From: Albugo candida
Taxonomy: Eukaryota
Assembly (NCBI GenBank): GCA_040437565.1
Contig: JBDOQK010000008.1
Span: 248,001-312,000, forward strand
DNA: 64,000 nt
Direction: 5' to 3'
A model generated the notes under the pieces. That model did no database searches, was not told the DNA's origin, and saw nothing but the letters and a program-made list of their open reading frames with translations. Both the position numbers and the translations under genes were made by a program. Positions 37,916 through 58,015 of this stretch are shown here, in pieces. Positions within the stretch are counted from its first letter, which is position 1. Every line of letters begins with the position of its first letter.

Positions 37916-40900
37916 ATGAGTGTGAGACAATGTGTTTTCGCAGCATTCTGCTTCTGTAACCGCACGCTTTTCATCGTAGCAGAAAAGAATGAAAGTGTGT
38001 TTGGCACTAGTCAGCTCGATTGGTTTAGTGAGCGGTACCCCGATGCAGCCTCACAAAAACTGACTTTGCCCTCGGGTGACGCAGCCAAAGGGTCTACGAT
38101 GATGACAGCCGCAGATTTATTGCCGACACTTACAACACCCACGATTTTGACTTCTTTCACTGCCAAATTAACCAAGCCGAATCACACCTTTCCAAAAATT
38201 CCCATTCCACTGAATGTCCCTGCACCTCCTGGAGACCCCGAGAAGCCCATAAAGCCTTCACTCGACAACCAATTTGTGCGTGATATATTTTATTTCCAAG
38301 CGCGTGTTTTTTCTTATAAATGTTGTGGTTGTAGGCTGGATGGCTCCAAATCGTTCGAATCAAAGATTTGAAAAAGTTTGTTATCAAATCTGGAAAATCA
38401 AAGGCTAAAGCGAAAAAACATCAGATGATTGCGTTTCGTGCAAATCGCCGTACAGATTTCAATACGTATTCCAATGATTTTGTGGGTAATGGGTCCACGA
38501 AAAGCGATCACAATGTGACGCAGCCTCCGTTTCTTGGAGAAGTTCCGTACACGACGACAAAGAATGCGACGACATACTTTGTCGCATTCGAATCAGATGG
38601 TCTGGCCACTCTGCAAGCCGGCAAAGATGGACAATTTTGGGGATTCGACTATGGCGAAAGCAAAGTTATTTGGGTCAAAGAACGCAACGATGCGATTCGC
38701 TTACAAATCTACGTCAATAAAGAAAAAGATGTCTTGTTCCTCAAAACAGCAAATGATTACTTTGTCAGCTTTCGAGGGAATTTATTCAGCAACAGCACAG
38801 CCAAAACCGAAGGAAAGCACGGACTGACACTGTTATCGATTTTATGTGATACTGGACTCTTCTATGCTCCTAAAGCCAAATTGCGAGATATGAATTCATA
38901 CATTGTCCATTACCGCCGACACGCTCTCATCGATTATCATGGAAAAGTATCTCCGCTCTTTGCACCATATGATTATGCCCTGTCGGTACTTTTGCGAAGA
39001 GATCTGTCGTCATTCCACATTTCGACCACCAATTATCGCTATGAATGGTTCAATATGTTATATACAATGACACAAGTTATGGTGCTCAATATCCCGGAAT
39101 ATCGTTCCATGTACACAACCTTCGGAACCAATATTTCGGATGATTTCAATATAAATGCGATTTTATGGCCACAGCACGATATCGATGTATTAGGCGTCCA
39201 ATACGGCTCATTGAAGCTATTGAAAATCGCATCCGAGCCTCCTGAAAGCGCCAAAAAGGATACCAGGCGATTGGAATGGGCTGGCATCGTCGGCACATTG
39301 ATCTCACGAGCTTGGCTCCGAGACATCAAAGCAAAGCGGTATCTGATACTCTCCGATGAAACTAGTGTGCATACGGTTCTCCGAACATTTTACACATGGT
39401 CGTGTACGTTGGCTAATCTTATGCTTCCACATTTGTCGACTCAGATGCAGTTGGAGCATATTGAGATCCTGCATCCACTGGATACGAACGACCCTTACTT
39501 GGAGAAGGATCAAAATGGGCAATACTGGTTCGATACCTTTGCAATTTGGGAAGTCATGCCTCTTTCTAAAGCCAATATTTTGCCGGACTTGGGTCTGTTG
39601 AGATATCTTCCCGGAGATTTCTTAAAGCTCGGGTCTTATGTGGGTGCTCGACTCGTTGCAATGATCATCTCGGAGACCATGAAAATCCTTAGTCAAAGTA
39701 ATATTCGAGGTCTCCTCCAATATTCAAGTCAGGATAAATTCATATCAATCAAGAAAGCCGCAGATGATATTTGTACACCAGACTCCAAGCTGCGATTTTG
39801 TCTTGTACAAGCCATTTTGACTCAATTCAAAGCGCTTTACTCGAGCCTCCAGACTATGTTTCCTACAAGATCGATCACATCGCTTTCAATGTTTCAAGAC
39901 ACCAACTTGCAGGAATATGTTGAGCAGCTGCTACAGCAAAGTACCCAAAAGGATCTGTTGGGTGTGATCGCCATGCGAAAAACTACTTTACTTGACATAC
40001 TGGCCCAGAGTATGAACAAACCAGCTTCTCTTATCCTCGATACGCGGCTTGAGCTTATTCTGGAGTCTAGTGGAGCCATGGCTAAAAGTCAGGCTTCACT
40101 GTCCAAGCATCTTCAGATCACGATGAAATTCGAACGTATGACTCGATCGGCTCAATTCGATCACAAAGTCACGATGATGTCTGAAGAAACACAGGCTGCG
40201 ATTCAAGGCAAAGCTCAATTAACCGCTTCCATGCAAAAACTTGCCATCCGAGCTAATGGAGAGCAAATCGTCGAAACTTTGGTAAATATGGTCGAACTTA
40301 CACTTTCAGCTTTTGCTGTTTACAATCCGTTTGCCGCAAGCCCAGAGTTGGATCTTCCTCAGGTTGGTTACATGATGACCGATGTCAATCGATTGAGCAA
40401 ATCCCTAGCAGGTCTCGTGGACACCGGCATGTTGACCTTTGCCTCGAGCAAGACTGCCCCACAAAGATTTGCCAGTATCATAACACGAATGATTCAGTAT
40501 CAGTATGCGATTGGGAATTTAAGTGAGGCTGTGCGTCCGTTACTCAATGACAGCGCCCTGGAAATTGATGAGAGTAAGCTGGAGCAATACGCTCCGACAT
40601 TTCTGGCTGCGTACGCAAAGTTCTCTCCTCCGGTCACGAATCCAGAAATCATGGAGCTTCAGTCCCTCATGTGTGCAATCATTCAGGCATTTTGTGCAAA
40701 GATCAATATTGATGAGTATGAAGGATGTATGACTGCCCCCAGCGACGCCATCAGAGTCTTTACGAGTCTTAGTCAAAGTACCATAATCGCCATCGACGCA
40801 GTGGAGACACTGTTTCAAGTCGCCACGGCGGCCGTCAACGTCCAATACGCTGCCAAAATTGGTAACGATGCTTTGCTGAGAGAGCAATACGTCGAACAGG

Positions 40901-42090
40901 GAACAGCACTTCTGCAGTCGAAATGGGATAATGATCGCACGAAAAAGGAGCTATGGTGGGCAAATTGGAAATTACAAGCTCAATACGCTGACGATATGGC
41001 AAATTTTGGACTTATTATCACTCGTACGTTGTTATTGCAGGGCGTCATCGCATTGTGCAATCAATACGCTTACATCAACGGAGGAATCTCACACTTTGTA
41101 TGCAAGTCGACAATTTTTCAACTCAAACCAATGTCAGATACTCAGATTGAGATTCTGATTACTGCGAAAACCGCTGTATCGCCTCAAGAATTGGATGTCG
41201 TCGCTTATATTCCAACCCAGCCGTCGTACCCGGGCGATCTTGCCTACCTTGATATGGGTAAGCTCATGAATGAAGAAACCCTCCATTTTCAAATCCCAAT
41301 GAATATGAAATGGCTCGAAACCTTTGGCTGGATCCCAAAAGTCAATGGAAATTTTAATCTGAGGTCTGTCTTCATCAAAGCCATGAATGTATACCTTCCA
41401 CCACGCTACGTAAATCATAAAAACAAGAAGACTCAGGTATCGATTCATGTCAACTTTACGGGCCGATCCATCCTCCTGAATGGGAAACAAGTTATCATCC
41501 CATCTTCCGATTTCATCAATAGTTATGAAGAGCGACCGAGTTCCTATGTTGGCCTATGCAGTTCTGTCCAGCTTCCATTCCATCAATGTGATCCGTATCT
41601 ACCCAAAGTATGCTCGACATCCCGTTCGACCCTCCCTCCCAAGCTCTTGCCAAGCTTGTTCAGCCCCTGTAAGATTCAAGCTTCTTTCTCGGATCCACGT
41701 TTGCGAGCAAAAGATGGTCGATACAAATACACGAACGTGACTTCGCCTCTCTATTTGCCCGTTGGACTGACACTCGAAATCTTCAATAACGAGCCTACTC
41801 AGCCAAATACACGCCTTCATGCCACGCCATCAAAGCCAAATGCAAGAAAAGGTGCCAAGCCAATCGTCCAATCTCGATATCCACGAAGCGCCACTCGTCA
41901 GCTCTCATTGAGAAGCGAGCCATCACCGAGCGCGCAAACACAAGCTCCTAATAGGTGTTGTCCCGTCGGATTCTACAAGAATTGGATACAAGGAAGCTGT
42001 CATCAATGTCCTGTCAATAGCGTGTCACAAATGGGCGGTTTTTACTGCGTATCGCTTGACGCTTCCTCTCCAATTCCGGCGATCTCGTAG
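37916..42090 (+). CDS. Large (about 1370 aa) putatively secreted uncharacterised protein, paralog A; intron 38276..38334
   Basis: A phase-0 GT..AG intron joins a 120-codon exon to the long ORF. Colinear motifs are shared with 42893..47884. C-terminal CCPxG..C.QCP..G.YC cysteine module. The signal peptide is weak. Confidence 0.85.
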
Positions 42091-42892: not shown

Positions 42893-45800
42893 CTATACCT
42901 TCGATTCCGCCTCTTTTGCATTTGCGGTCGATGGACGATTTTTCAAAAAGGCTTTTGGAGTAGAAGCTGTTGGAGCCGAAGCCGTTGGAGCCGAAGCTGT
43001 TGGAGCCGAAGCTGTTGGAGCCGAAGGCGTCGAAGTTGCAGCGTTCGCAGTTGAAAGCGATACGCAATACAAGCCTGCCATGCGTGATTTTGTGCCTCGT
43101 GGACATTGGTAGCAGCTCTGCTCCAGCCCATCTATATACTGTCCTATCGGACAGCATCGTTGCTGTCCCTCTTCGACGAGATTTCGACGAAGAAGTTTTT
43201 TTTCAGAAGATGGCGCTGGAGGTTCGACGGCAGTTTTGGAATTGGGGACCGTCTGACTTGGTGCTGGGGTACCTTCCTCTTCTTTCTCCATCAAATTGGC
43301 AGATTTTTCGGCAGTGCTGGGTGCGTAAGTGGAACCTGCTGCATTCACTGTACCAGGGTCACCACTCGTAGTGGTCGTGGCATCTTGCTTTTGAGGACCA
43401 AGTTTGTAGACTTGATACGTCACATGCGCTGTTAGCATCAAATTGGTAGCCAAAGCATCATAATCAATCAGGGGTGATGTACGATTGGGGAACTCAGCCC
43501 TGACAAAAAATCGGCTAAACAATGGAGGAAGAAAAGTCGGCACTCGCGTTGGACCATTGCGCGAGCACACAGTCGGCAAGAGTGTGCTGCAATCTCTAAT
43601 GGGAAGCTGCACAACCGGACATTGCCCAATATAACTTCGAGGCTGTTCTTCATAGTTGTTGATAAAGCGTGTTCTGGGAATTACAACCACTTTGTTTCGA
43701 AGAGCTGAACCAAAGGAAGAGAAACCGGGAAAGCTCACAGTGATTTTTACCGGACATCGTTGCGTGGCGTAGTTTGCATACGGCGGAAAAGCAAAAATCT
43801 TTATATCTCTCACATAAACAGTCGACGAATTTGAAGCCGCTTGTGCGCTTGTGAGCCATTGAAACTTTGTGAGCAATGAGACGTTGTTTGGTAATAAGAA
43901 AGGAACACTTTCACCTCTCATGAGCTTACCGAGAGGAAGATAGCTCGTATCGCCTGGGAATTGTGGTTGCGTGGGGATCGATGCAATCATTTTGACGGAC
44001 TGAGTTGATGCACTTGCCTCATACGAAGCCAACAGTTCAATTTGCGCACTTGAGATCGGCTTTAACTGATATACTGTGGTTCCACAAACAGGAATGGGAT
44101 TGCCGCCATTCTTGTACGTAAGCTCATCGCAATATTGAATAATCGCTTGCAGTAAGTTGGCATGACTGGTAAGTATACCAAGAGAAGCCATCGACTCTGA
44201 AAGACTCAAATCATTTCTAAAGGTACTCCACCATTCTTCTCTCTTCTTTGCATCATCGGCCCATTTGTTTTTTAAGAGCTGTATACTGTCATCCGTACTT
44301 TTGCTCTGTGTTTCGGCTTCAGATGTAATCCTTTGGGCATTTTGATTATTCAACGCGGCGCTTGCGATATGAAACATGATATCGACAGAGTCCATAGCGG
44401 CGACAATACTTTCAGTAAGACTTCCGAATACAAATGCGACTTCAGCTGGAGCCGTGACACATCCAGCAAAACCATCAATATTGATAAGCGAACAAAAAGC
44501 ATCGATGACAGTCGACATCAGCGTTCGCACTTCATCGACCTCATTGTCAAAAATCGTTGGTCTGAAGGTATCATACACGGCAATAAACGCAGCTGCATGC
44601 TGTGCGAGACCATCGACATTCACAGTTAAATCAGCCGTAATAAGCGCTTTTAACGGCTCGTAGATTCGCTGAATTTCCTTCTGGAAAAGTACCATTCGCT
44701 GGAGAATATCATCAAGACGTCTTGCTCCTTCCACGGATATAAAAGCACGCAGCTGTTCCAATTGTACCATATTAGTGATCGATTTTGACAGCCGATTGAG
44801 ATCGACTACCAGACTTCCTACTCTTGCGGGATCCACTACCATGCCGTATGGATTGACCACAGTCAGGACGGCAAGTGTGGTTTCGAATGTATCAATGACC
44901 AATTCCACAATTTGCTCTGTTTTCGCTCGATTGGAAAGCTGTCTTACCGCAGTCATCATCCCACCTCTGCGTTCATCTGCTCTGTTGAGAGCGTTTTTCA
45001 TTGCTCGCATCCTACGCTCATATTGGGCTTGACGACTTTGTACATCAAAGCTTGATGAGCGCGTTAGATGCTTCCCGAGCTCTTCTTGCGACTTTACAAG
45101 GAGGCCATTGACCTGAAGCATCTGATCGATAGTTGCGTCTTGAATATCAGCTATTGTTTGCTTCATTGTTTCTTGCAGAAAAGTAAATACTTCTTTTCTT
45201 TGCTTGGCGATTGTGCCTACGATACCTTCCTGAGCATTTTGCTTTATAAGCTGCATCAAATACTTTTGTGTGTCAACTTCTGCAAAGCTCGTCAAACGTG
45301 TCACTCCTTTCTGTACAAACATATTGTTCAGCGATCCTGCAAGTGTCGATAGCTGAGTCATCAAACTACCAACGGCACAAAATTGGGCCCTTGTTTCCAA
45401 AGTGCATTTTGCGTTGATAAGAGCACCCAGCACACCAAAGTTGTCATTGCTTGTAAGCTTGAATATTCCACCAAAGTCAGAATCGGACACATACTTGAGA
45501 CCATCTACCGAGATATTGGATGTGAATTCAGCCCCAATGTTGGCGTCTTGTACGACCTCCAAAGGCAGATGCAGTATCAAGCCCATCTGCGCAAAGATCT
45601 TGAAATTATCAACAGGTTCTCCAGCCACACTAAGAAACACGGAAAACCAGTATTGTTGATTCGCGTCTTTGCCGATATATTCTTTGCCAGCATCACCGGA
45701 TGTCAAAATCTCCGTAAAGTTGAGCTTTTGTAAAAGCGTCGCATTGGGAAGCATCAGCGTTGCAAGCTTGCACGAAGAGGAGTAATAAAGCTGAAGGGCG

Positions 45801-47884
45801 CTCTCAGTTGTTATCGTCGGTTGAGCAAACACATACTCTTTTTTCTCAACATTCCGCAGCCATGCATGTGCAACGATCGCAGAAAGTGATCCTGACCATA
45901 CTTGCCGCGCTGGTGTAATTGTCGTAAGCGGTATTGGATATTGAGCGATTCGCAATAGACTGTCAGTGACAGCCGATAGGGAGACACTGGCTTCGGTGAC
46001 ATCAATGAGTTGAGTAATGTCAAAGTCTTGAGCCATTCGCTTTCCAAAAGAGCCATACATTTTTCTATATGCTGGGATATTGACAACGACGACCTGAGTC
46101 ATTGTGAAGAGCACATTGAACATTGTGTACGGATCGTTTAAAATTGGCGATCGAAATTCGCTTATTTCCATTCCATTGGCAATAGATAGAGCCATTTCGT
46201 ACGCCATAAAGGGTGATGGAATCGCTTCTTTTTTCGCTTCGATCGCTTTTTGTCGATAACTCACTACTTGCGCATTAAGGTCTCGTGTTTGGATCTTAGG
46301 TGCGTAGAAGAAGGAATTTTCGGTGACCGCTTGGGATGTAATCAGACAACGAGATACTTCATCGCCCATGTATATATTTTCATCCGAATTTGGTGCGGTG
46401 CCTGTCAATTGCGTAGGCTTGGCACTTATCGGTCCTTTGCCTGCATCTGGGACATTTGTACCTGCAGGTTTTGCTGGTACATTTATGCGTGTATCAGCCA
46501 ATTTTGGAGGGAGACTTGCTGTCCGGACAGATTCCTTTGATGGAGGGCTACCAGATTGAAGCTTTCGTCGAGTTCCTGGAGCAGCAGATGCCGGTGGTTT
46601 ATCAGGCGGGATCATGGTAACTGAGCTTGGAGAGGGTGTTCTGACTCCTGCATCCGAAGTTGCAGGAGCTTGATCATCCTCTTGACCTAGTTTGACTTGA
46701 ATCATTGCAGCGGCGTTGTTTGGAACACTTCCCATGAAACTCAAAAACTTGTCGCCATGCTTGAAAATCACGACGTCCAATGTATCTAAAAGATAGATTT
46801 CCATCCTCACAGCCATCGCCGCAGTATCCACCCATTCAATAACGTTGGTTCTGACGTTCAAAGCCCAATATTGCTGACTGGCAAAAGATCTTACGATAGC
46901 AGTTCCATTGCTATCGAAGAATAGATTGTAACATTCGATAGCGGGAGCCTCACCACTCTTTGTGGTACTTGACCAAGCTACCTCCCCAACACAGGTACTT
47001 ACTGAGCCCTTTAGAGGTCCAATGGGACCATGAGAGTAAGTATCAAAGTCGGCACGGCGATTAGAGAAAAAGCTGTAGCATTTGTTGACTTGTGGGATCT
47101 TACTATCCGATGCCGATGCTGATTCAAACTTGTCTAAAGATTCTGCTGATAAAACTCGGACCAAGCCATTCTATGACAATGCAGCGTTGTATTAGGTACA
47201 CATGCACATATTGNNNNNNNNNNNNNNNNNNNNNNNNNNNNNNNNNNNNNNNNNNNNNNNNNNNNNNNNNNNNNNNNNNNNNNNNNNNNNNNNNNNNNNN
47301 NNNNNNNNNNNNNGGCACGGCGATTAGAGAAAAAGCTGTAGCATTTGTTGACTTGTGGGATCTTACTATCCGATGCCGATGCTGATTCAAACTTGTCTAA
47401 AGATTCTGCTGATAAAACTCGGACCAAGCCATTCTATGACAATGCAGCGTTGTATTAGGTACACATGCACATATTGCAAATGAAAAAAACGTACATATGC
47501 CGAAGCCCCCAAAGCAGAATTTAGCGGACGAGTTGTGCCTCCATTTGTTGGAGATGTAGTTGCGCCTAATACTCCCGTTGTTACGCCACCTCCGTTGGTT
47601 CCTCCAGCTGGACCTTTCGCTACTGGTGGTGCTATTGGGCCGGGTACTGCAGTACCCGACTTATTAGGAGCAATTGGACCTCCTGCCTCTGGGGCTCCTG
47701 TTGATGGTATGGCCGGAGGACTAGCTGGTGCTGGTGGTGTTACTGGAGGAATCACTGGTGCTGGTGGTGTGACTGGAGGATTCACTGGTGCGTTTTGTGC
47801 TTTGATAGCGCGATCATCGTGTGATACGATGAGAAGTAGCGCGATTACTCTAATGGAACGTCTAAATCGCGTCTTCCAATTCAT
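42893..47884 (-). CDS. Large (about 1555 aa) secreted uncharacterised protein, paralog B; intron 47434..47494 (duplicated across gap 47214..47313)
   Basis: Signal-like MNWKTRFRRSIRVIALLLIVS and Pro-rich linker. Phase-0 intron at the same relative position as in paralog A. 1423-aa ORF with shared motifs and C-terminal Cys module. Confidence 0.88.
42954..43030. repeat. 15-bp coding tandem repeat (PTASA x4) in C-terminal tail of paralog B
   Basis: ttggagccgaagc(t/c)g units repeated directly. Confidence 0.9.
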
Positions 47885-48097
47885 ACTGTCACAAACAAAA
47901 TCGACGTGTGCACAAGCAAATACTTATTTCCAAATGAGTCATTGTAATTTTGTAAAGAAAACATATTGGACACCTCATCGCAGGATCATGATCATGACGT
48001 GGACGGGCAGGTAGAAGACAGATCACGAGCCTTTATAAACTCATATATATAAATAAAGCATAATTCTTTGATAACATGAAAGCTAGTACCTGAGCAC

Positions 48098-51000
48098 TCA
48101 AGCTGAACCGGCATAATGCAAGAAAACCAAACTAATCGCTATGATTGCGATGCCAAAGAAGAGGGAGATGCTGAAATACTTTCCACTTGGATCGAAACGA
48201 AAAGCACCTGGCACGAGCTCGATAGCAGTAATGGCCATAAGCATTCCAGCAACCACAGCGTAAAGCGTTGCTTGTAATGCTGAAGTCAAGCCACCGGATA
48301 CGACGATCCACCCCATTAATGCTCCCATGGGCTGAGCGATACCACTCAATGTCGTCCACTTCAGTGCTTGCCAGATACTGCCAGTTCCATAGTAGATCGG
48401 AGCAGCAATGGCGACACCTTCGGGAAAATTGTGCAGAATGATTCCTACCGAGAGCGTGACACCCGTNNNNNNNNNNNNNNNNNNNNNNNNNNNNNNNNNN
48501 NNNNNNNNNNNNNNNNNNNNNNNNNNNNNNNNNNNNNNNNNNNNNNNNNNNNNNNNNNNNNNNNNNGGATACGACGATCCACCCCATTAATGCTCCCATG
48601 GGCTGAGCGATACCACTCAATGTCGTCCACTTCAGTGCTTGCCAGATACTGCCAGTTCCATAGTAGATCGGAGCAGCAATGGCGACACCTTCGGGAAAAT
48701 TGTGCAGAATGATTCCTACCGAGAGCGTGACACCCGTTTTTAGGCCTTGTAAAGACGAAACAAATAGTGCTAGGCCTTCTGGAAAATTGTGGATGGCGAT
48801 AGCGATCCCTGTCATGATACCAGTTCTTTCAAATTCCTCTTTGGTGATGGCATTTGGCGCATGGAGAGAAGCACTTCTGACAGAACATCTTTGTTGTGAG
48901 ACTGAACTTGGTTGCGCTAGAAAATGCTCTTCAGTAGTCGATATTCCATTCTTGATTTTGAAGCTAATGTTGGATCCTGTGGCGCCAACTTGTGGTTCGT
49001 AATGGGGTTTTGGCTCTCGATCTTCCATGCTGTCATGGGAACTATCTGAGCCATGGCCAAAGCATCGGTGCACCAGTATTTCGACTAAATAGATCAACAA
49101 AACACCTCCAGAGAATGCAACACAGGTCGCTAACCATGACTTTCCGCTGCAAATTCTGTCACACGTCCCAATCTGAGTAGTACTCCCGCCATGCTCGTAA
49201 GCTTCAGCATCTCCATTACCGCCAACAGTAAAAGTAGCTCGATAATATGTGACTGCTTCTGACCACAGATCTGCAAAAGCGATAAAAATCATTACTCCTG
49301 CCGACAATGCAAATGCAGCCGCCAGAGAACGAGGCTTGGCTAATATCATCAAACATTTACATGAGACGACAAGTGTTGACATAATGGTAGCAATGCCGGC
49401 CAAAACACTCATACCCAAGGCAGAAAGAACGGTACTTGTTGGTATCTTATTCGTTCCTGAGCTGGTTTCATTCGGTGTGTCATCGTCTGTGGCCGTCAGC
49501 TGGAAGTAGCTCACCATTTGATTTGCTTCATGTTCCATCGTGTGACAATGCACCAAGTATGGTTCAGCCGTAGGGTCAAAACCGTATCCTTTGGCAGACC
49601 GATTGCTATTTTGCACAAGGTACTCATCAGGAGTACAAGCTACGTAACAGACCTGGGAAACCTTGTTGCTTGGGTCACTTGGGATCGCAACCACATCTTT
49701 CAGTCCGTTCTGATCAATTTCATCATCATTGGGACCGCATTGCGCATTCACAAGATGCCAATGAAATGGATGTGCTTCATCGGTTGGATTTTTGAAATTC
49801 CACTTTTCCACTTTGCCATATGTGCAATTAATAGTTCCAGTCACTTCTTGCAAACTCAGTTCTTGGTTTTGATATATAATCATTGCTTTTGAGGGACAAT
49901 TCAGATGATGTTCGTATTCTCCGAGACGAATGACACGTTCTTTACCCCTTGATTGCTTCCATAATGCTTTCAGATCTTTATATTTGACAAGTGTTTTTGG
50001 CATCTTTTTGTCTGTCGTTTGAGACTTCGCCAAGCGTTTAAGGACTCGAAGTTGAAACACTCGAGAGTCATAAGGAGTATCTTGTACGGCAGTTTGGCGA
50101 TCCACAACATCGTAAATCACCTCTTCTTGAGTGAATTTTGTAAAATCGCATAAAATTTCCAAACGTTGGAAAGGATAGAGAACTAGATTAGACTTCATTG
50201 CTAATACATTCTGTACGTATCCGCTGTCGGTGGCAATTTCTTCACAATATCTATGAAACGGAATGCTGAGATTATAGTGACGTGCATTGGCAACGTTTGC
50301 AAAACGGAGTCGGATCTGTCTTGATGGGACTTCTAGATACGGCATCACTATCCCATTGATCGTATTGACGGTTCCGAAAGATTCGGGTACCCATTTTGTA
50401 TTCGCGGTAGGTTCACATTGGTATTGAGAGTATAAAAGCTTTCCAGATTCATCCAGTATCCGATCTGCTAGCATCAACGGATAATCGTATTCTGACGGTA
50501 TATTCAGCCGAGTATCCAATTCTTGGTCTTCGATAATGTACAGCCCAACAAGTCCTGCCCAAACACTCAATCGTGCCAGACCAATCGCATGATCATGATA
50601 AAATTTTGTTGAGGGTGATTGAGCATTCAAGTACGTTGCTGTTGTACTTTGATTATCATAAATCGAGTACCGTGGCATGCCATCATTCTGTGGTGATGCC
50701 TCAAGCCCGTGCACATGGACAACCGCTGGGACTCCACAATGCGGGTAACAATGTGAGTCTGTGAACCTCAATAATGAGTCTTCAACATAGTCGTCCAGCA
50801 CATGTTTCCTTCCTAGTCTATTGTACCAAGTCACATTGACTGGTTTGTTTCTAGACACCAAAAGCGTCGGCCCAGGAAATGATGTAGTATCGTTCAACGG
50901 CCCGTATCCATATATGATATCCGACAATCCTTCGTGGCCTGTTCCATCCTCCCAGAAGTGCCTTGTTGGCGCCATTTGCATATCAGCATGATGACCATCC

Positions 51001-51170
51001 CTCAAATCTATCACTCTGGGAATTGGTAGTCTTGACCGATATGCCTTCCAATTTTTCTTTAATGGTCGCGATGCCGTATTTCCATTTGATTGGTAAAAGG
51101 CAAGAGCAAAAATGAGCAGCCATTCTCGCCACTTGTGAAAAGGAATGTTGGTGTTTGAATTGGATTGCAT
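48098..51170 (-). CDS. Multicopper oxidase (CotA/bilirubin oxidase-like) fused to ZIP (ZupT/GufA-type) metal transporter; about 933 aa after removing gap duplication
   Basis: Signal-like N-terminus. Cu motifs VHVHG, FYHDH, HPFHWH and HCHTMEHEANQM. Then ZIP: ALSAGVMIF, IAIHNFPEG, IILHNFPEGVAIAAPIY, AQPMGA, VAGML. Removing 100 N plus the 171-nt overlap (48296..48466 = 48567..48737) gives a 2802-nt frame. Confidence 0.93.
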
Positions 51171-51229
51171 TTTTGCAATCGGAATTGAATTGGAGCAAGT
51201 TCGACTGAATTGTTGGTGGTCGACTAGAG

Positions 51230-51245
51230 AAATTTGAAAATGAGC
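51230..51245 (-). promoter_or_regulatory. Oomycete Inr+FPR core promoter element upstream of MCO-ZIP gene
   Basis: Minus strand reads GCTCATTTTCAAATTT, matching the oomycete Inr (YCAYTYY) + FPR pattern, about 60 nt upstream of the ATG. Confidence 0.7.
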
Positions 51246-51635
51246 TTTTGATCGAGACAGGAACCAGTCATTCTGCTTTTGTTAACGCTGAATACCAATC
51301 GGTCGATATTGTGGCAGCAATACAGTCTTAAGTTATAAAAGGGGAAATATGAGCAGAGTTGTATCATCACGTCAATAGCGTTCGCCTAAGCGTGTAACTA
51401 GCCAATCAAAATCGTACGATATTCCTTTCTATGCTTTCTAAAAACCTACGCAGCCGAGGAGTGACAACGTTTCAGCAATCAAGAGTAGAGGTATAAGATG
51501 AGAATCTGCGAATCGAAAAATGTAAAATCCATTGCAGGGCTTCAAATGTGACGTTCATTTGGCTCATATCGCGATGAAAATCGACTTCAACTTCAATCCA
51601 GTTAATTGATCAAATTACAAATCCGCCCACATACT

Positions 51636-54600
51636 TTACGGAATTTCCATAAACTTCAACTGGCTTGCACTGCTTCGGAAACACTTCACAAGTCTCTGAC
51701 ACTGTTCCGGTGTAAATGCATCACACACTTGATGATGTTCATCAGCCACAAAATCTGCAATTTCTAATGCTTTTTCGGCTAATGGCCTTGCTAGCTGACA
51801 TCTAGATTCCATCGGATAGTGCTCGAGGCGGAGAATGGCACGCGAAGATTCATGCAGGAGGAAATGAAAGTCGAAAACAACCATCGGTAGACAATACTGC
51901 CGAATCTTCCGCTGTTTGTCCGCCTCGTCCGGAAGAAGGCAGTGGCACATCCATCCATTCTCAAAGTGAACCGCATCGATGAAGCTTGTGATGGCACGAG
52001 ACACATGATACATGAGTTCGGTGACAAATACCTTCTCTTGGTGATAAGGCGATGACGAAGCGGAACGGGTAAGAATGCTGCGCCAGCTATGAAAAGTTTC
52101 AGACAGCTGAGCGAGTGATCGCCAACACAAATGCTCACGAATGCAGCGATCCAAGTAATCGTTTGGTTGGTCGTGTCGCTTGGTCTCCTGTTGACTCAAA
52201 AGTTGCTCATTACGATGCATTTGAATAATTCCAATGGAATCGTCGCGATCATATGTTCGAAAGAGTTCTTGAAAAGCGGCAAAATTCTTTTCGAGTATGA
52301 ACTCTCGAGCTAGTAGATTCATTTGAATCAAGGCTTGCGCACGATGTTGCTGGTAGATGAAAAGCACTTCAAGTACCTTCACTCGTTGCCGGTCAAGAGT
52401 GGTGACGCCATCATTTGCCCGTTCTTTTATTTGCATGTCGATGTCCGTCACGCTCGCATTGGAATGGATTGCACAAAATAAATTGTGTAATTTACGTTCC
52501 ACGGTCACAAAGACGATGTCTGATACATTATTCATGGACAGAAATTGAAGCATACGTCTGATACAAGATTCCATTTCAGCGTGCGTGTCAATCTGGAGCA
52601 GAATCTGGCAATACAGTTCAACCAAGGCTTCATCTGGAAGTGGAGATATGTAGATAGGCAACAGATGAAGCTGTGCATGTTTTGTCAAATGTCGGATATA
52701 CATTTTCACGATCATATGTCCGGCTTTGAAGTGGCCTTCTAGTTGTTGCGTGAAGCCCATGAACAAGACAAAATGAGCTGCAAATCGTAAGAACTGCACT
52801 GGTACAGTATCAGCTGGTATGGGTTTATCGTCGCCAAGATGCAGGTTCCAATCATATTCTTCAGCATCATGTCCCAGTACAATTGCTCTAAGTGTTTCCG
52901 CCATTATGGAGCCAATCTTGTTTGACACGAGGCGGGCTTGTACGCGACGAAATGGCTCGTTGGCTTGTGTCCTGACTCGTTCATGGTTGCATTCCATCAG
53001 ATCATTGAACAAGAAATCTATATTCTTCTCATACTTTTCGAAGTCTTTCGTTTTATCGATCAAGTCGGTAAAGATGGCCATGTGCCGCTTGGTATTGCCC
53101 ACAAGCATGTTAGAAGATTGAAGTTTGACTTTGCACAGTTCCAAGAGAATTTTGTCGACTTGTGATTCTGTAATGGCTTGCACCAAGGCCCAGCAGTGAT
53201 CTTCCCAGCTGTCACACGCCGGTGATTGAATGAGTGTATGAGCATTTCCACAGAGTGCTGCGTATATGGCTTTCTCGTAACTCAATGCAATCTTACTATT
53301 GGACTTGACCATTTTCCCAGGAGTTTCGAGATTTGAAAATCGCCAGCAAATCGACTTCCACAATGGTCGAAATGGATTCCCCCAACGAGAGATCGAAGCG
53401 TCTCGTTCTATGGAAGCACCGACCGGTGTGCCACCAGAAAGACTGGCTGCTCGCCAAGCTTGTCCTCGTTCAGTGCATATATCAATCGCTCTCTCGAGTT
53501 GCCCGCTGCGCACACACTTCCACAAACATTTCATCAGTGATGCCTCATCTTCAAGATCATCATCCAAGTAATCAGCATCTCCAACTCGTAGCGTTGCATC
53601 GGGGTCCAGATAAACTGTCTGGCTATCGGTCTTAGAATAAGGCAATCCCAAATATGTTCCTTTCTTCAACGAGCGCAGTGTTCGAGGTGCTATTCCTTTA
53701 CGTCTCTCAAGATTCGTCAATTCTTCTTCGGCCGCCAGATCCTCCAGCCAATCCTTGACTGCTCTGAGCACTCGAAATGTTGTATTATGCGACTCAAGCA
53801 ATTCAACCGCTTNNNNNNNNNNNNNNNNNNNNNNNNNNNNNNNNNNNNNNNNNNNNNNNNNNNNNNNNNNNNNNNNNNNNNNNNNNNNNNNNNNNNNNNN
53901 NNNNNNNNNNNNTATCAATCGCTCTCTCGAGTTGCCCGCTGCGCACACACTTCCACAAACATTTCATCAGTGATGCCTCATCTTCAAGATCATCATCCAA
54001 GTAATCAGCATCTCCAACTCGTAGCGTTGCATCGGGGTCCAGATAAACTGTCTGGCTATCGGTCTTAGAATAAGGCAATCCCAAATATGTTCCTTTCTTC
54101 AACGAGCGCAGTGTTCGAGGTGCTATTCCTTTACGTCTCTCAAGATTCGTCAATTCTTCTTCGGCCGCCAGATCCTCCAGCCAATCCTTGACTGCTCTGA
54201 GCACTCGAAATGTTGTATTATGCGACTCAAGCAATTCAACCGCTTGGTCTTCGGTCATTCCAAAATGAATTGCGCTTCCTAGATCAAGATCAATCATGGA
54301 AATCTTTGTAGAGATTGAATCCATTGACTCTAAGGTCATATCAGCCTGTCGTAGTTGATACAGCAGCTTCCATGTGTTGCGTTCGTCCCGCAACTGAGTG
54401 ATATCGTCAGCAAATTGAATCGGTTTTATGTTTAAAGACTCCTGTGAAGATCTTATAGAAAGGGTTGGCTTCCAAGATGCATCACAATTAACTCGTCCCT
54501 GCTTCACTTTCAGACGCTTTATTTGAGCGTCTAGAGCATCGATATATCCGCACAAGAGTTTGTCACAAAGGATTTTCTGATCTTCTGCGTCAGGAGCAGT

Positions 54601-55383
54601 CTCATGAAAATCCGCTAGCATATTTGCGAAAAAGGTTTCCTCCGGTCGAATTCGCCAAGATAAAGCTTCCCCAACTGAAGCTGGTATTGATCGGGGAGAT
54701 GAAGCGGATTCTCCCACGTGTGACGCATGTATGCTTGTGGGTGAGGCTGAGGCCAACGAGGAGTCATGTTGTGAGGTCACTCGATCATTGAAACCGATCT
54801 GGTACGAGGATTTCTTTACAATATGGATCGCGCCATTAAAGTGAGCTCCGCAATCTGCGACCAACCAGTCATCTTGTACAAGATTGCCGTCAAACATGAC
54901 CTGCGCGTGGTCGACAGAAAAGCTGAAAGCGCTTTCAGTATTGCGTTTGGCACAAAACGCGTGCTTGATTTCCCGTATTGTTGCGGAATTTGGGTCAATA
55001 TCGATATATTCGACACTTTGGTCCGGAAAATGAGCCTTTATATGAAGCATGTCTCCTCTTACGGATCGATCCACATCATACGAAGCGAGACCGTCGTGTA
55101 TCATTGGGTCTACTGTATGAATTGTTCCAGATGGAGTGGATGCTACTTTAGTGTCGATGGTATCCATTGAATAGAAATTCGAGCAGGCGGGTAATTGATC
55201 TTGCGGGTCGTGTGGAAGTGATATTTCACATTGTGTCTCCGCTGTGGACGCACTAAATTCATCAAAAGTTGCAAGTAATTGCAGTGATTCATCCGCATGA
55301 TCGATCAAGCGTTGAATTCGATCCCTTCGAGGGCGTACGGATGACTGCAAAGAAGATGAAGTTGGCGAAAATGTCGCTTCCAT
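51636..55383 (-). CDS. NUP107: Nucleoporin NUP107/Nup84 with N-terminal ubiquitin-like domain (segment duplicated across gap 53813..53912)
   Basis: ERNTWKLL, VKDWLE, LDPDA, VRSGQLERA..C..GQAWRAASLSG, GNPFRPLWK, YEKAIYAALCG, SWEDHCWA, FLRFAAHFVL. Confidence 0.9.
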
Positions 55384-55567
55384 AATGATAGCAANNNNNN
55401 NNNNNNNNNNNNNNNNNNNNNNNNNNNNNNNNNNNNNNNNNNNNNNNNNNNNNNNNNNNNNNNNNNNNNNNNNNNNNNNNNNNNNNNNNNNNNNTAATGA
55501 TAGCAACCAACCGCAGAGAGATTTACCGTATAGTCTCTTATAAAGCGCTAACGATAGAATATGTACC

Positions 55568-58015
55568 ATGCCAATGGTACACTCATCACGAACCAGTGGA
55601 CAAATGAAGCTTTTCATCGATAATTCTGAGCGAAATACGTCGACTTTGAAATGCCTAGCAACATATTTCCATACAAATCCTTCGTCATGCTCTATTCATT
55701 CATCGTCTGATGCACCACAATCCTCTAAAATCCCTTCTTTTCCGCTTCTTTGTATTCCAACATCCGAGCCATCATCCACCGAACGAATTGTTTGTGCCAA
55801 TGCGATATGCCGATATTTCGCCTTTTTAGCGGAAAAAAATGCACCTGAATCATCATTGAAAGCGGACGATACCTCCGTAGACGATTGGATAGAATGGGAA
55901 GCGAATACCTTGGCACCGCTATTGCCCCATTTCGAGCAAAAAGACTTTGACACTACCCAGTTTACCACCAAATTCATTGAGATCCTTGAAAAACGCGAAA
56001 AAAGCTGCTGTCTAAAAGCTCCATATCTCACTGGAAACTCCATTACACTGGCTGATATCATTGTTGGAGCCACCTTACGTGAATCCTTTGCAATTATTTC
56101 GGATGAGCTTCTCAGTGAGGATACTCTTCAAAAGTATCACACGTACACTTCTCAACTTTTTTCCCACACAAGTTTCACTAAAGCACTTCAGAATTCAAAC
56201 CCTCCTGCATTTAGTCCTGATTCTGAAATGATGCAGGGATGGACACAGCACAGCGTGTTATACATTGTGGAAAGTTTCTTCAAAAAAGCGATCGAATCAG
56301 CCTTTCCCAATTTGGACCCAGCTATACTAGTGGTAGACGTAACACGAACGAAGAACGCTCAATTCGGTGATTACCAATGTAATTCGGCCATGTCGATTTT
56401 CACATCGGTGAAAGGCACTCCAAACGCCATGAAATCACCAAGGGATGTTGCCAATTCCATCATAACCGCTATGAAACAGATCGAGAACCCTGTCTTACAA
56501 TCAGAGTTAACCGTTGCTGGAGCGGGCTTTATCAACGCACGCTTGACACCAACTTTTCTTAGCGCACGTTTACTGACCTTGTTGAAACATGGAGCGCAAC
56601 CGAGCCCAGAAACAAATCACGTCAAAGTCGTAGTGGATTTCTCATCCCCCAATATCGCCAAAGACATGCATGTAGGCCATCTACGATCGACGATTATCGG
56701 GGATGCCATATGTCGAATCCTTGAATTTCAAGGGTATGATGTTGCTCGAATCAATCACATTGGCGACTGGGGGACGCAATTCGGCATGCTCATCTGTCAT
56801 CTGATGGATGCTTATCCAACGTGGGAATCAGAACAGCCCAACGTAACAGATTTGACACAATTATACAAAGCCGCAAAGGAGCGCTTCGACCAAGATGATG
56901 CCTTTCGACAGCGGTCCAAGGATCAAGTTGTTCTTCTACAATCCGGTGATCCTCATTCCCGTCATGTGTGGCAAACGCTGTGTGAGATAAGTCGGAAAGA
57001 GTATCAGAAAGTGTACGATCGACTTCATGTGAACCTCACGGAAATGGGAGAATCATATTATAATCCATATATTCCCAGCGTCATTGACCAATTGGAGAAG
57101 AAGGGAATCACAGAGAACAGCGATGGCGCTTTGGTGGTCTTTACAAAGCAATTCAAGCAGCCTTTCATGCTTCGTAAGAGCGATGGCTCGTATCTGTATG
57201 ATACGACTGATATCGCTGCACTTTGGTATCGATTGCACGAAATGCAGGCGAAATGGATTATTTACTACACGGATTACACGCAGAATGACCACTTTAATTT
57301 GCTCTTTGAAGCCGCCCGTATGGGAGGCATTCTAGACCCATCAAAGCATCGTGTAAACCATATTGGTTTTGGAACTGTAAATGATGAAAGCGGCAAGCGA
57401 TTCAAGACGCGCTCAGGAGAGGTTGTTCGACTAGTAGAGCTGCTCGATGAAGCCAAAGAACGAATGAAGGTACAGCTCCTTAGTCGCATCCAAAGTGGCC
57501 AGACCAGTTTGCCAGCTGATCAAGTGGAAATAGCAGCTGAGAAAATCGGATATGGAGCTGTCAAGTACTTTGATTTGCGTCAGAGTCCGACTTCGAGTTA
57601 TGTGTTCTCATATGATCGCATGCTGTCGACCAACGGAGATACTGCTGTGTACTTGCTGTTTGCTTATGCACGATTATCCTCGATTATTCGTAAAGCTGGT
57701 ATCGACATCGAATCCAAAGTCCTGGCTGTAGATCACTCAGAGGCGCTTTGCATCAACCATCCATGTGAACTCGCATTGGCGTTGGAGCTTTTGCAATTCC
57801 AAGATATTTTGAAATTAATCAATCGAGACTTGAGCACCAATCGACTTTGTAGTTATCTCTACACAATATCGGAAAAAGTGCAGACATTTGTGACTCAATG
57901 TCGAGTAATCGGAGGCGAAGAGCAGCAAAGTCGGCTATTTTTGTGCCAAGCAACGCTCAATGTCATGCACAGATGCTTTTGCCTGCTGGGCATTGATCCA
58001 CTGGATCAAATCTGA
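55568..58015 (+). CDS. RARS: Arginyl-tRNA synthetase with N-terminal GST-like domain, intronless
   Basis: FGDYQCN, DFSSPNIAKDMHVGHLRSTIIGD (HIGH-type), NHIGDWGTQFG, KSDGSYLYDTTDIA, FKTRSG, GDTAVYLLFAYARL. Confidence 0.97.
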   Translation: MPMVHSSRTSGQMKLFIDNSERNTSTLKCLATYFHTNPSSCSIHSSSDAPQSSKIPSFPLLCIPTSEPSSTERIVCANAICRYFAFLAEKNAPESSLKADDTSVDDWIEWEANTLAPLLPHFEQKDFDTTQFTTKFIEILEKREKSCCLKAPYLTGNSITLADIIVGATLRESFAIISDELLSEDTLQKYHTYTSQLFSHTSFTKALQNSNPPAFSPDSEMMQGWTQHSVLYIVESFFKKAIESAFPNLDPAILVVDVTRTKNAQFGDYQCNSAMSIFTSVKGTPNAMKSPRDVANSIITAMKQIENPVLQSELTVAGAGFINARLTPTFLSARLLTLLKHGAQPSPETNHVKVVVDFSSPNIAKDMHVGHLRSTIIGDAICRILEFQGYDVARINHIGDWGTQFGMLICHLMDAYPTWESEQPNVTDLTQLYKAAKERFDQDDAFRQRSKDQVVLLQSGDPHSRHVWQTLCEISRKEYQKVYDRLHVNLTEMGESYYNPYIPSVIDQLEKKGITENSDGALVVFTKQFKQPFMLRKSDGSYLYDTTDIAALWYRLHEMQAKWIIYYTDYTQNDHFNLLFEAARMGGILDPSKHRVNHIGFGTVNDESGKRFKTRSGEVVRLVELLDEAKERMKVQLLSRIQSGQTSLPADQVEIAAEKIGYGAVKYFDLRQSPTSSYVFSYDRMLSTNGDTAVYLLFAYARLSSIIRKAGIDIESKVLAVDHSEALCINHPCELALALELLQFQDILKLINRDLSTNRLCSYLYTISEKVQTFVTQCRVIGGEEQQSRLFLCQATLNVMHRCFCLLGIDPLDQI

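Follow-up and report, generated by a model that had tools for sequence, protein, structure and literature searches.

Are the multicopper oxidase (MCO) and the ZIP metal transporter that share a reading frame in the oomycete Albugo candida really parts of a single protein and, if so, what would a redox enzyme be doing at the entrance of a metal importer? ZIPs are the main Zn, Fe and Mn importers of eukaryotes, and the basis of their metal selectivity is debated. The gene that raises the question lies on the minus strand, between positions 48098 and 51170 of a 64,000-nucleotide (nt) stretch of contig JBDOQK010000008.1 (assembly GCA_040437565.1, positions 248,001 to 312,000), called the window here. 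A first-pass annotation, made from the letters alone, had read it as one uninterrupted frame with all copper and ZIP metal motifs intact. It had also supposed that an extracellular oxidase tethered to a ZIP could set the redox state of a metal at the pore or release metal from host phenolics. The analysis described here confirms that the MCO-ZIP observation is real, and its homology relationships identify the gene as the Albugo orthologue of an ancient, oomycete-wide, single-polypeptide MCO-ZIP protein. As to its function, we propose, with a probability of roughly 40%, that it would be a ferroxidase at the cell surface, tethered above a functional ZIP importer of divalent metals, where it would set the redox state of the metal at the pore.

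The frame runs from an ATG at 51170 to a TGA at 48100-48098, and its sole break is a run of 100 N at 48467-48566. Positions 51170-48567 translate to 868 residues (P0001) and positions 48466-48098 to 122 residues followed by the stop (P0002). One frame for both halves is thus what is found, but the frame is not uninterrupted: the first-pass annotation had overlooked the gap, which falls within the ZIP half, and the exact 171-nt direct duplicate that flanks it (48296-48466 equals 48567-48737 at 100% identity). Once the duplicate is removed the protein has 933 amino acids (aa), and a database protein of equal length, P0003, aligns to it with 12 substitutions and no indel. Contigs from three public runs of two studies (X1, X2 and X7) each connect 48295 to 48567, leaving out exactly 271 nt. 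Taken together, the duplicate, the three contigs that skip it and the length of P0003 set the true product at 933 aa rather than 1012. An exact duplicate beside a gap likewise makes both the third HNFPEG motif and the 1012-aa length of the open reading frame (ORF) artefacts of assembly; the false duplicate is a pair of overlapping contig ends that were never merged.

The boundary between the two halves is of more consequence, and had been placed at about 49430-49520, away from any gap. It proves to lie at 49425-49499, at least 859 nt from the gap, and is unbroken in the contigs of all three runs. The X1 contig (2,859 nt, 48094-51223) and the X2 contig (2,956 nt, 48066-51292), both of uncertain kind, hold the whole fused frame and little beyond it. 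They look transcript-like by extent, but we do not count them as proof of one transcript, their "RNA" label being a guess; the X7 contig that spans the gene is 116 kb long and also of uncertain kind. In the Pfam scan, Cu-oxidase_3 was matched at residues 149-217 (E 7e-10), Cu-oxidase_2 at 435-557 (E 5e-9) and Zip at 583-867 (E 1.5e-20), and the piece beyond the gap matched the C-terminus of Zip (E 1.3e-10), all four matches exceeding their gathering scores. A fused frame of such length with three Pfam families above threshold is no chance event. The parts of the gene are as follows (TM, transmembrane helix; T1, type 1 copper site; the basis of each assignment is given in brackets).

48098..51170, minus strand: whole fused gene, including the gap and the false 171-nt duplicate; true product 933 aa (frame, translations, contigs)
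51078..51170, minus strand: residues 1-31, a signal-like N-terminus that contains the hydrophobic stretch WLLIFALAFY (sequence)
49500..51065, minus strand: three-domain CotA/LPR1-type MCO, residues about 36-557 (Pfam, CotA alignment, ligand conservation, Foldseek)
50382..50384, minus strand: E263, in the column of LPR1 E269 (alignment)
49776..49778, minus strand: E465, aligned with D462 of LPR1 and two positions ahead of the T1 ligand H467 (alignment)
49425..49499, minus strand: acidic linker, residues 558-582, 25 residues (sequence, conservation)
48567..49424, minus strand: ZIP TM1-TM6, residues 583-868 (Pfam, BbZIP alignment, model)
48774-48791, minus strand: ZIP HNFPEG in TM4, residues 794-799 (sequence)
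48687-48704, minus strand: ZIP HNFPEG in TM5, residues 823-828 (sequence)
48603-48605, minus strand: ZIP Q856 in TM6 (alignment)
48467..48566, no strand: scaffolding gap of 100 N, no part of the gene (contigs, duplicate flanks)
48296..48466, minus strand: false duplicate of 48567-48737 (100% identity; three contigs skip 271 nt)
48098..48295, minus strand: ZIP TM7-TM8, residues 869-933, and stop codon (Pfam, model)

The oxidase, the linker and the transporter

Among proteins of solved structure the best phmmer match of the oxidase half is CotA, the Bacillus subtilis laccase (PDB 1GSK, 2WSD), with an E value of 2e-50 over CotA residues 54-508. Every copper ligand is in register with CotA: H152 and H154 (HVH), H192 and H194 (HDH), H467, H470 and H472 (HPFHWH), H541, C542 and H543 (HCH), H547 and the axial M552, the last five completing the HCHxxxHxxxxM pattern. 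These ligands are kept in 67-68 of 68 full-length fusions; conservation is counted here over those 68 or over 58 aligned fusions, as given. With the Pfam matches, the CotA alignment and both HNFPEG motifs at the positions first assigned to them, the earlier claim that copper and ZIP metal motifs are intact in one fused frame holds. An AlphaFold2 model of the fusion, of moderate quality (mean predicted local distance difference test score, pLDDT, 66.7; predicted template modelling score, pTM, 0.55), was compared by Foldseek with CotA structures and gave TM-scores of 0.67-0.73, normalised on the target. The substrate loop is similarly long in CotA, but CotA has no membrane part and carries Ala and Gly at two columns where the fusion family has an invariant Glu and an Asp or Glu. 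NCBIfam also reports weak similarity to PhsA and CueO. CueO carries a Met-rich feature; a region of this kind is absent from the sequence of the fusion protein.

Several features bear on the side of the membrane at which the oxidase is found. Of 58 aligned fusions, 57 have a hydrophobic run at the N-terminus, and N-glycosylation sequons are conserved in the MCO half (N173 in 56, N300 in 54 and N439 in 55 of the 58), the median in the ZIP half being 0. Besides the T1 ligand, nine cysteines are invariant in the fusions. From work on BbZIP and ZIP4, the N-terminus of a ZIP is extracytoplasmic. The signal-like start, the sequons, the cysteines and the N-out topology together place the oxidase, by prediction, outside the cell or in a lumen, in agreement with the extracellular location that had been supposed.

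The conservation of acidic residues near the T1 site is of particular interest for the substrate. In PMC9168544 the Fe2+ site of Arabidopsis LPR1 is described by three motifs around E269, D370 and D462, a triad that CotA does not have, and D370 is the least critical of the three residues. The same paper gives motif 1 as [WVI]xP[EA][YAF]x[GA], which includes E269, motif 2 as N[DTS][AG]xxP[YF]PxG[DE]x(5-10)[VI][ML]xF, which forms the D370 loop, and motif 3 as NxTx[DEG]xHP, in which the acid stands two residues before the T1 His (PMC9168544). The counterpart of motif 1 in the fusion is WVPESFG, with Glu (E263) in 68/68 fusions and Ala in CotA; at its fifth position, where the motif wants Y, A or F, there is S in 60 and A in 8 of the 68. 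Motif 3 is fully matched by NPTDEAHP, position 465 being D in 65 fusions, E in two and a gap in one, with Gly in CotA. An invariant Asp, D368, stands in the loop of motif 2, two residues ahead of its closing hydrophobic motif. When aligned together with the fusions, four LPR1-like proteins of plants show Glu and Asp at these two positions, as do many of the 128 other non-oomycete relatives (Glu in 87, Asp in 91).

By sequence the MCO is therefore CotA-like in the size of its loop and LPR1-like at two acids near the T1 site, which points to, without proving, a metal cation as substrate, most likely Fe2+. Given these LPR1-type Fe2+-site acids, a metal cation, most likely iron, would be a likelier substrate than host phenolics, and the suggested release of metal from such phenolics loses ground to it. 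Arabidopsis LPR1 and the bacterial LPR1-type ferroxidases (PMC9168544), which are CotA-related MCOs, share with the fusion a three-domain CotA-like MCO, the acids at the E269 and D462 columns and motif 3. The fusion differs from them in the absence of motif 2, in its shorter loop and in the transporter attached to it, and its own ferroxidase role is a prediction.

In the ZIP half, hydropathy flags TM1-3 and TM7-8, and the AlphaFold2 model shows all eight helices; the long TM3-TM4 loop (residues 706-783) is poorly conserved. Pfam Zip scores 74.1 bits over TM1-6 and 41.5 bits over the C-terminal piece, against a cut-off of 35.1. The H, N, P, E and G of HNxPEG are kept in both TM4 and TM5 in 68/68 fusions. 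Similarity to NCBIfam ZupT is strong (E 3.8e-54, 183.7 bits) but below the equivalog cut-off of 252, so that the ZIP half is best described as a relative of ZupT and not an equivalog. It aligns to BbZIP across TM4-TM6, and here a single substitution stands out: the TM6 residue at the position of the BbZIP Glu ("sglmEplgal") is Gln in the fusion clade and Glu in 10/10 stand-alone relatives. Of 116 shorter ZIP matches, 74 have Glu at this position, one has Asn and eight have Gln, the pattern being unmatched in the other 33; all eight with Gln are fragments of fusions. The change from Glu to Gln thus appears to be specific to the fusion, the metal site being, as judged from its residues, of the divalent type and slightly de-charged. 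Conservation within the protein is highest in TM4-8, where the median identity to other genera is 69%, compared with 53% for the MCO half. We regard the ZIP half, on this conservation, as a working transporter and not a decayed anchor.

The two halves are joined by a linker with the consensus DDDxxPxDDG, in which two Asp residues, D562 and D563, never vary in 58 sequences, while at least 90% of these retain D568 and G570. From Met552, the last copper ligand, to the beginning of TM1 there are no more than about 28 residues; this short distance would hold the T1 and substrate end of the oxidase near the membrane face of the ZIP, and we infer that the site lies close to the mouth of the pore. The fusion has the eight helices and the HNxPEG motifs of TM4 and TM5 in common with E. 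coli ZupT, the GufA-type ZIPs and Bordetella BbZIP (PDB 5TSA), and differs from them in the Gln for Glu of TM6 and in its 560-residue N-terminal oxidase. ZIPs of the LIV-1 type, such as human ZIP4, have a large N-terminal ectodomain. Like the fusion, they carry a large extracytoplasmic domain before TM1 that could modulate transport, but the fusion differs in having a redox enzyme as its ectodomain and a ZIP core of another subfamily.

Distribution and descent of the fusion

A survey of oomycetes for a copper oxidase joined to a ZIP had been suggested with the first reading of the gene, and it finds the architecture widely. Both halves are matched by phmmer in 81 of 113 homologues, and 10 named genera carry the fusion: Albugo, Globisporangium, Pythium, Phytophthora, Nothophytophthora, Lagenidium, Aphanomyces, Achlya, Thraustotheca and Saprolegnia. 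They cover the two classes Peronosporomycetes and Saprolegniomycetes. The A. laibachii orthologue is 86% identical, and in several species of Phytophthora and Globisporangium the gene is present in two or more copies, in some cases on a single contig. A search with the junction region returned 23 matches, of which the 21 named belong to Albugo, Phytophthora, Globisporangium and Nothophytophthora. No downy-mildew genus appeared among the named matches, which may reflect a limit of the word-indexed search.

Outside the oomycetes no fusion was found among the best 150 of 7,381 matches in a 50%-identity representative library of 1.84 billion sequences. In those 150, only P0008 and the fragment P0120 (by name an Aphanomyces stellatus partial) have both halves, and P0008 groups with the oomycete fusions. 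A two-halved protein as similar as the best single-domain matches would outscore them, and would therefore stand among the best 150. In the ESM Atlas there are MCO clusters only, and no fusion cluster with at least 50 members. Four apparent stand-alone versions of the fusion-type ZIP (P0280-P0283, 53-56% identity) were considered and are read as truncated gene models: P0280 starts at the axial Met, P0281 and P0283 start inside TM1 and P0282 in the loop just past it, and three of the four carry the fusion-type Gln by pattern match. The architecture is already present in public databases, under automatic names such as "Spore coat protein A", "Zinc (Zn2)-Iron (Fe2) Permease", "Multicopper oxidase LPR1-like" and "FtsP/CotA-like multicopper oxidase.../zinc transporter ZupT", and the sequence itself is accordingly not new.

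Separate phylogenies of each half had also been called for, and the two agree. The ZIP halves of the fusions form one clade (21/21; Shimodaira-Hasegawa-like approximate likelihood-ratio test, SH-aLRT, 100; stem length 0.94), and the ZIP and MCO trees have the same split between Saprolegniales and Peronosporales and the same sister pairs. One ZIP clade and matching trees fit a single fusion that took place before the two oomycete classes, Peronosporomycetes and Saprolegniomycetes, parted and that has been kept since. On these sequence comparisons the fusion is both ancient and under selection. The oomycete MCOs stand on a separate long branch (SH-aLRT 100), apart from the bacterial and plant LPR1/CotA-like MCOs. 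Among the matches listed, the nearest named non-oomycete MCOs are a protein of Dyella, a soil gammaproteobacterium (35% identity), and a moss LPR1-like protein, so that the bacterial affinity proposed for a CotA- or bilirubin oxidase-like MCO is borne out, with plant LPR1-type MCOs beside it.

The nearest stand-alone ZIPs among the matches listed are eukaryotic, at no more than 34% identity, and include an oomycete tandem ZIP. Two such tandem proteins, P0122 (Lagenidium giganteum, 625 aa) and P0137 (621 aa), consist of two complete ZIP units with two HNxPEG motifs each, and are the nearest ZIP-only relatives of the fusion ZIP half among the matches listed in the representative search. Each would amount to a ZIP dimer in covalent form.

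Paralogues of the oxidase that lack a ZIP are soluble, have a single C-terminal TM, or end in a Ser/Thr/Gly-rich tail. P0081 and P0082 (577-579 aa) have a single C-terminal hydrophobic helix in place of the ZIP. P0083, P0084 and P0086 (799-940 aa), two of which are named Phytophthora, end in a Ser/Thr/Gly/Asn-rich tail of 250-400 residues with no Pfam match. The ends of P0081-P0084 and P0086 look like other ways to hold an oxidase at the cell surface.

Possible roles of an oxidase at the pore

In the reading that we prefer, a ferroxidase, which may also be a cuprous oxidase, would act on the pool of metal at the entrance of the ZIP, and the redox state of a metal would decide whether it enters a broad-specificity divalent importer. 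Zn2+ and Mn2+ would pass. Fe2+ would be converted to Fe3+, which would be unsuited to a divalent-type ZIP site and could be held back or caught by the acidic linker. The net effect would be a redox gate, or selectivity filter, on the importer. We prefer this gate over a hand-over of Fe3+ to the transporter because the fusion ZIP has a divalent-type site from which a Glu has gone without any gain of hard ligands, and because MCOs of the CotA/LPR1/CueO branch are known to serve in conditioning or protective oxidation and not in uptake.

Several observations weigh against the proposed gate. The counterpart of motif 1 deviates at one non-acidic position (S for [YAF]). LPR1 motif 2 is unmatched, the loop in the alignment with CotA being CotA-like in length, and this loop has 25-27 residues in the fusions compared with 30-32 in the three of four plant LPR1-like sequences whose loops are complete; with motif 2 unmatched and the loop short, bulky organic substrates would still be possible. 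The meaning given to the TM6 change depends on the role of the BbZIP Glu, which we take to be a ligand of the second metal site. Within the fusion clade there are MCO paralogues without a ZIP, monophyly of the fusion MCOs being rejected (approximately unbiased test, p-AU 1.6e-59), and their position there indicates that the oxidase has a role without the ZIP. The AlphaFold2 model, at the pTM and pLDDT given above, shows no confident packing between the domains. An oxidase that removes Fe2+ beside an importer capable of taking Fe2+ also looks wasteful if the cell needs iron. Finally, the substrate of the oxidase, the substrate of the transporter, the localisation and the coupling between the two are all predicted from sequence.

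The fusion might instead work as an analogue of the yeast pairs Fet3p-Ftr1p and Fet5p-Fth1p, in which an extracytoplasmic ferroxidase MCO, attached to the membrane after its third domain, sits beside a metal permease. Here Fe2+ would be oxidised and the Fe3+ handed through the acidic linker to the ZIP, which would stand in for the Ftr1 permease, so that the fusion would provide the high-affinity iron uptake of oomycetes. The logic is that of the known oxidase-permease pairs, and the membrane attachment directly after MCO domain 3 recalls the C-terminal anchor of Fet3p; the conserved LPR1-type Fe2+-site acids, the conserved acidic linker and the several paralogues would all suit it. Nutrient transporters commonly occur in such sets, and in Phytophthora and Globisporangium some of the paralogues share a contig. 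The permease of the fusion, however, is a ZIP with an ordinary divalent site of the H/N/E type, its MCO is of the CotA/LPR1 branch, not the Fet3 one, and its two parts are covalently joined. The fusion ZIPs lost a Glu and gained no hard oxygen ligands, the Pfam scan of the whole fusion protein gives Zip and no FTR1 domain, and we know of no ZIP that carries Fe3+. We consider such a hand-over possible though rather doubtful, and with it the notion that oomycetes have their own oxidase-coupled iron uptake, in which a ZIP, and no Ftr1 permease, receives its iron from a bacterial-type (LPR1/CotA) ferroxidase welded to it. It is also unlikely, in our judgement, that the oxidase acts at the pore on another substrate, either Cu+ as in CueO, Mn2+, or organic metal chelators and phenolics, in the service of detoxification or of the release of Zn, Fe or Mn for the ZIP, a reading that comes near to the supposition of the first-pass annotation. 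The closest solved relatives of the MCO are indeed CotA laccases and bilirubin oxidases, its substrate loop is short and CotA-like with LPR1 motif 2 absent, and the weak NCBIfam resemblance to PhsA and CueO points the same way; against this stand the two invariant acids exactly at LPR1 Fe2+-site positions, where CotA has Ala and Gly, and the absence from the sequence of a Met-rich region like that of CueO.

The two activities might instead be independent, the ZIP being a membrane anchor for a surface oxidase or the oxidase a mere ectodomain. Paralogues without a ZIP, which are soluble or end in one TM or in a Ser/Thr/Gly-rich tail, and the lack of confident inter-domain packing in the model can be cited for such co-localisation, yet we think it improbable. 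The transport residues of the ZIP are invariant in 68/68 fusions, the ZIP is the more conserved half, a metal-site position carries a fusion-specific substitution, the linker motif is conserved, and retention of the fusion goes back beyond the parting of the two oomycete classes. Conserved ZIP residues, linker, TM6 change and long retention are together more than a plain anchor would need. That two adjacent genes were merely merged, by mis-assembly or read-through, could be imagined in a window with 13 scaffolding gaps, one of them within the fusion gene. The distance of the junction from the gap, the contigs of three runs that span it, the same unbroken architecture in 10 genera from many annotation sources, and the fact that the ZIP-only "genes" begin in the MCO C-terminus or in or just after TM1, as truncated models would, make an artefact extremely improbable.

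A full-text literature search, with subscription journals, TCDB and the InterPro architecture pages lying outside it, found no functional description of an MCO-ZIP fusion, as the first-pass annotation had believed. The available texts of PMC9788385, PMC9168544 and PMC11836134 do not describe one, and the main text of PMC9168544, its Data S2-S5 aside, contains neither "oomycet" nor "stramenopil". The available text of an Acanthamoeba preprint (bioRxiv 10.1101/2024.02.02.578540) turned out to concern a lectin gene model and no laccase-transporter fusion. In the proteome of Phytophthora cactorum, two proteins named "Multicopper oxidase, type 3" (KAF1779895.1 and KAF1787880.1) changed on virus curing, according to the available text of PMC9788385. 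Three MCO-ZIP fusions of P. cactorum bear the same name, a likeness by name alone.

One would not expect to find a predicted ferroxidase-type enzyme joined to a ZIP for divalent metals, and the presence of a redox enzyme at the entrance makes the fusion a natural experiment on ZIP metal selectivity. With it, the recently defined family of LPR1-type ferroxidases would extend to the stramenopiles in a membrane-bound form, LPR1 itself being a soluble apoplastic or endoplasmic reticulum protein. If the ZIP were fed by the ferroxidase, the fusion would represent a third, independent architecture for ferroxidase-dependent metal transport. It would then also be the first ZIP in which a built-in redox enzyme governs the choice of substrate, with the change from Glu to Gln in TM6 as part of the adaptation. 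Albugo is an obligate biotroph. The fusion has been retained there, has multiplied in Phytophthora and pre-dates the split of the classes, and this long retention, the retention in Albugo and the multiplication in Phytophthora make it likely that the protein has a part in metal nutrition or in metal stress among oomycetes, which include major crop and fish pathogens. Since no fusion was found outside the oomycetes among the best matches listed, it could also serve as a lineage marker.

The surrounding window

The neighbours of the fusion gene, a nucleoporin of the Nup107/Nup84 type and an arginyl-tRNA synthetase, indicate ordinary nuclear eukaryotic DNA and no contaminant. Each of the 13 gaps of the window is exactly 100 N long, and at nine of them the left flank (23-333 nt) recurs exactly past the gap. 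Such recurring flanks mean unmerged overlapping contig ends, and gene models drawn across them carry false duplications or frame breaks. The gaps begin at the following positions.

13033, 20420, 23779, 25148, 31587, 34332, 34948: gap starts, 100 N each
47214, 48467, 53813, 55395, 59386, 61070: gap starts, continued, 100 N each

Two minus-strand ORFs, at 51636-53534 and 53803-55617, both match Nup84_Nup100, at profile positions 149-716 and 1-165 respectively, and are probably one Nup107-type nucleoporin gene; the gap at 53813-53912 and a 333-nt duplicate sit inside the upstream one. Two long ORFs, at 38425-42090 on the plus strand and 42893-46816 on the minus strand (1221 and 1307 aa), match no Pfam family at E ≤0.001. 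The ORF next downstream from the fusion gene, at 47387-47884 on the minus strand, has 165 aa and no Pfam match, and the 100-N gap at 47214-47313 lies just past it. With its hydrophobic N-terminus and its Pro/Thr/Gly-rich body of PVNPPVTPPAP repeats, it may encode a small secreted or wall protein.

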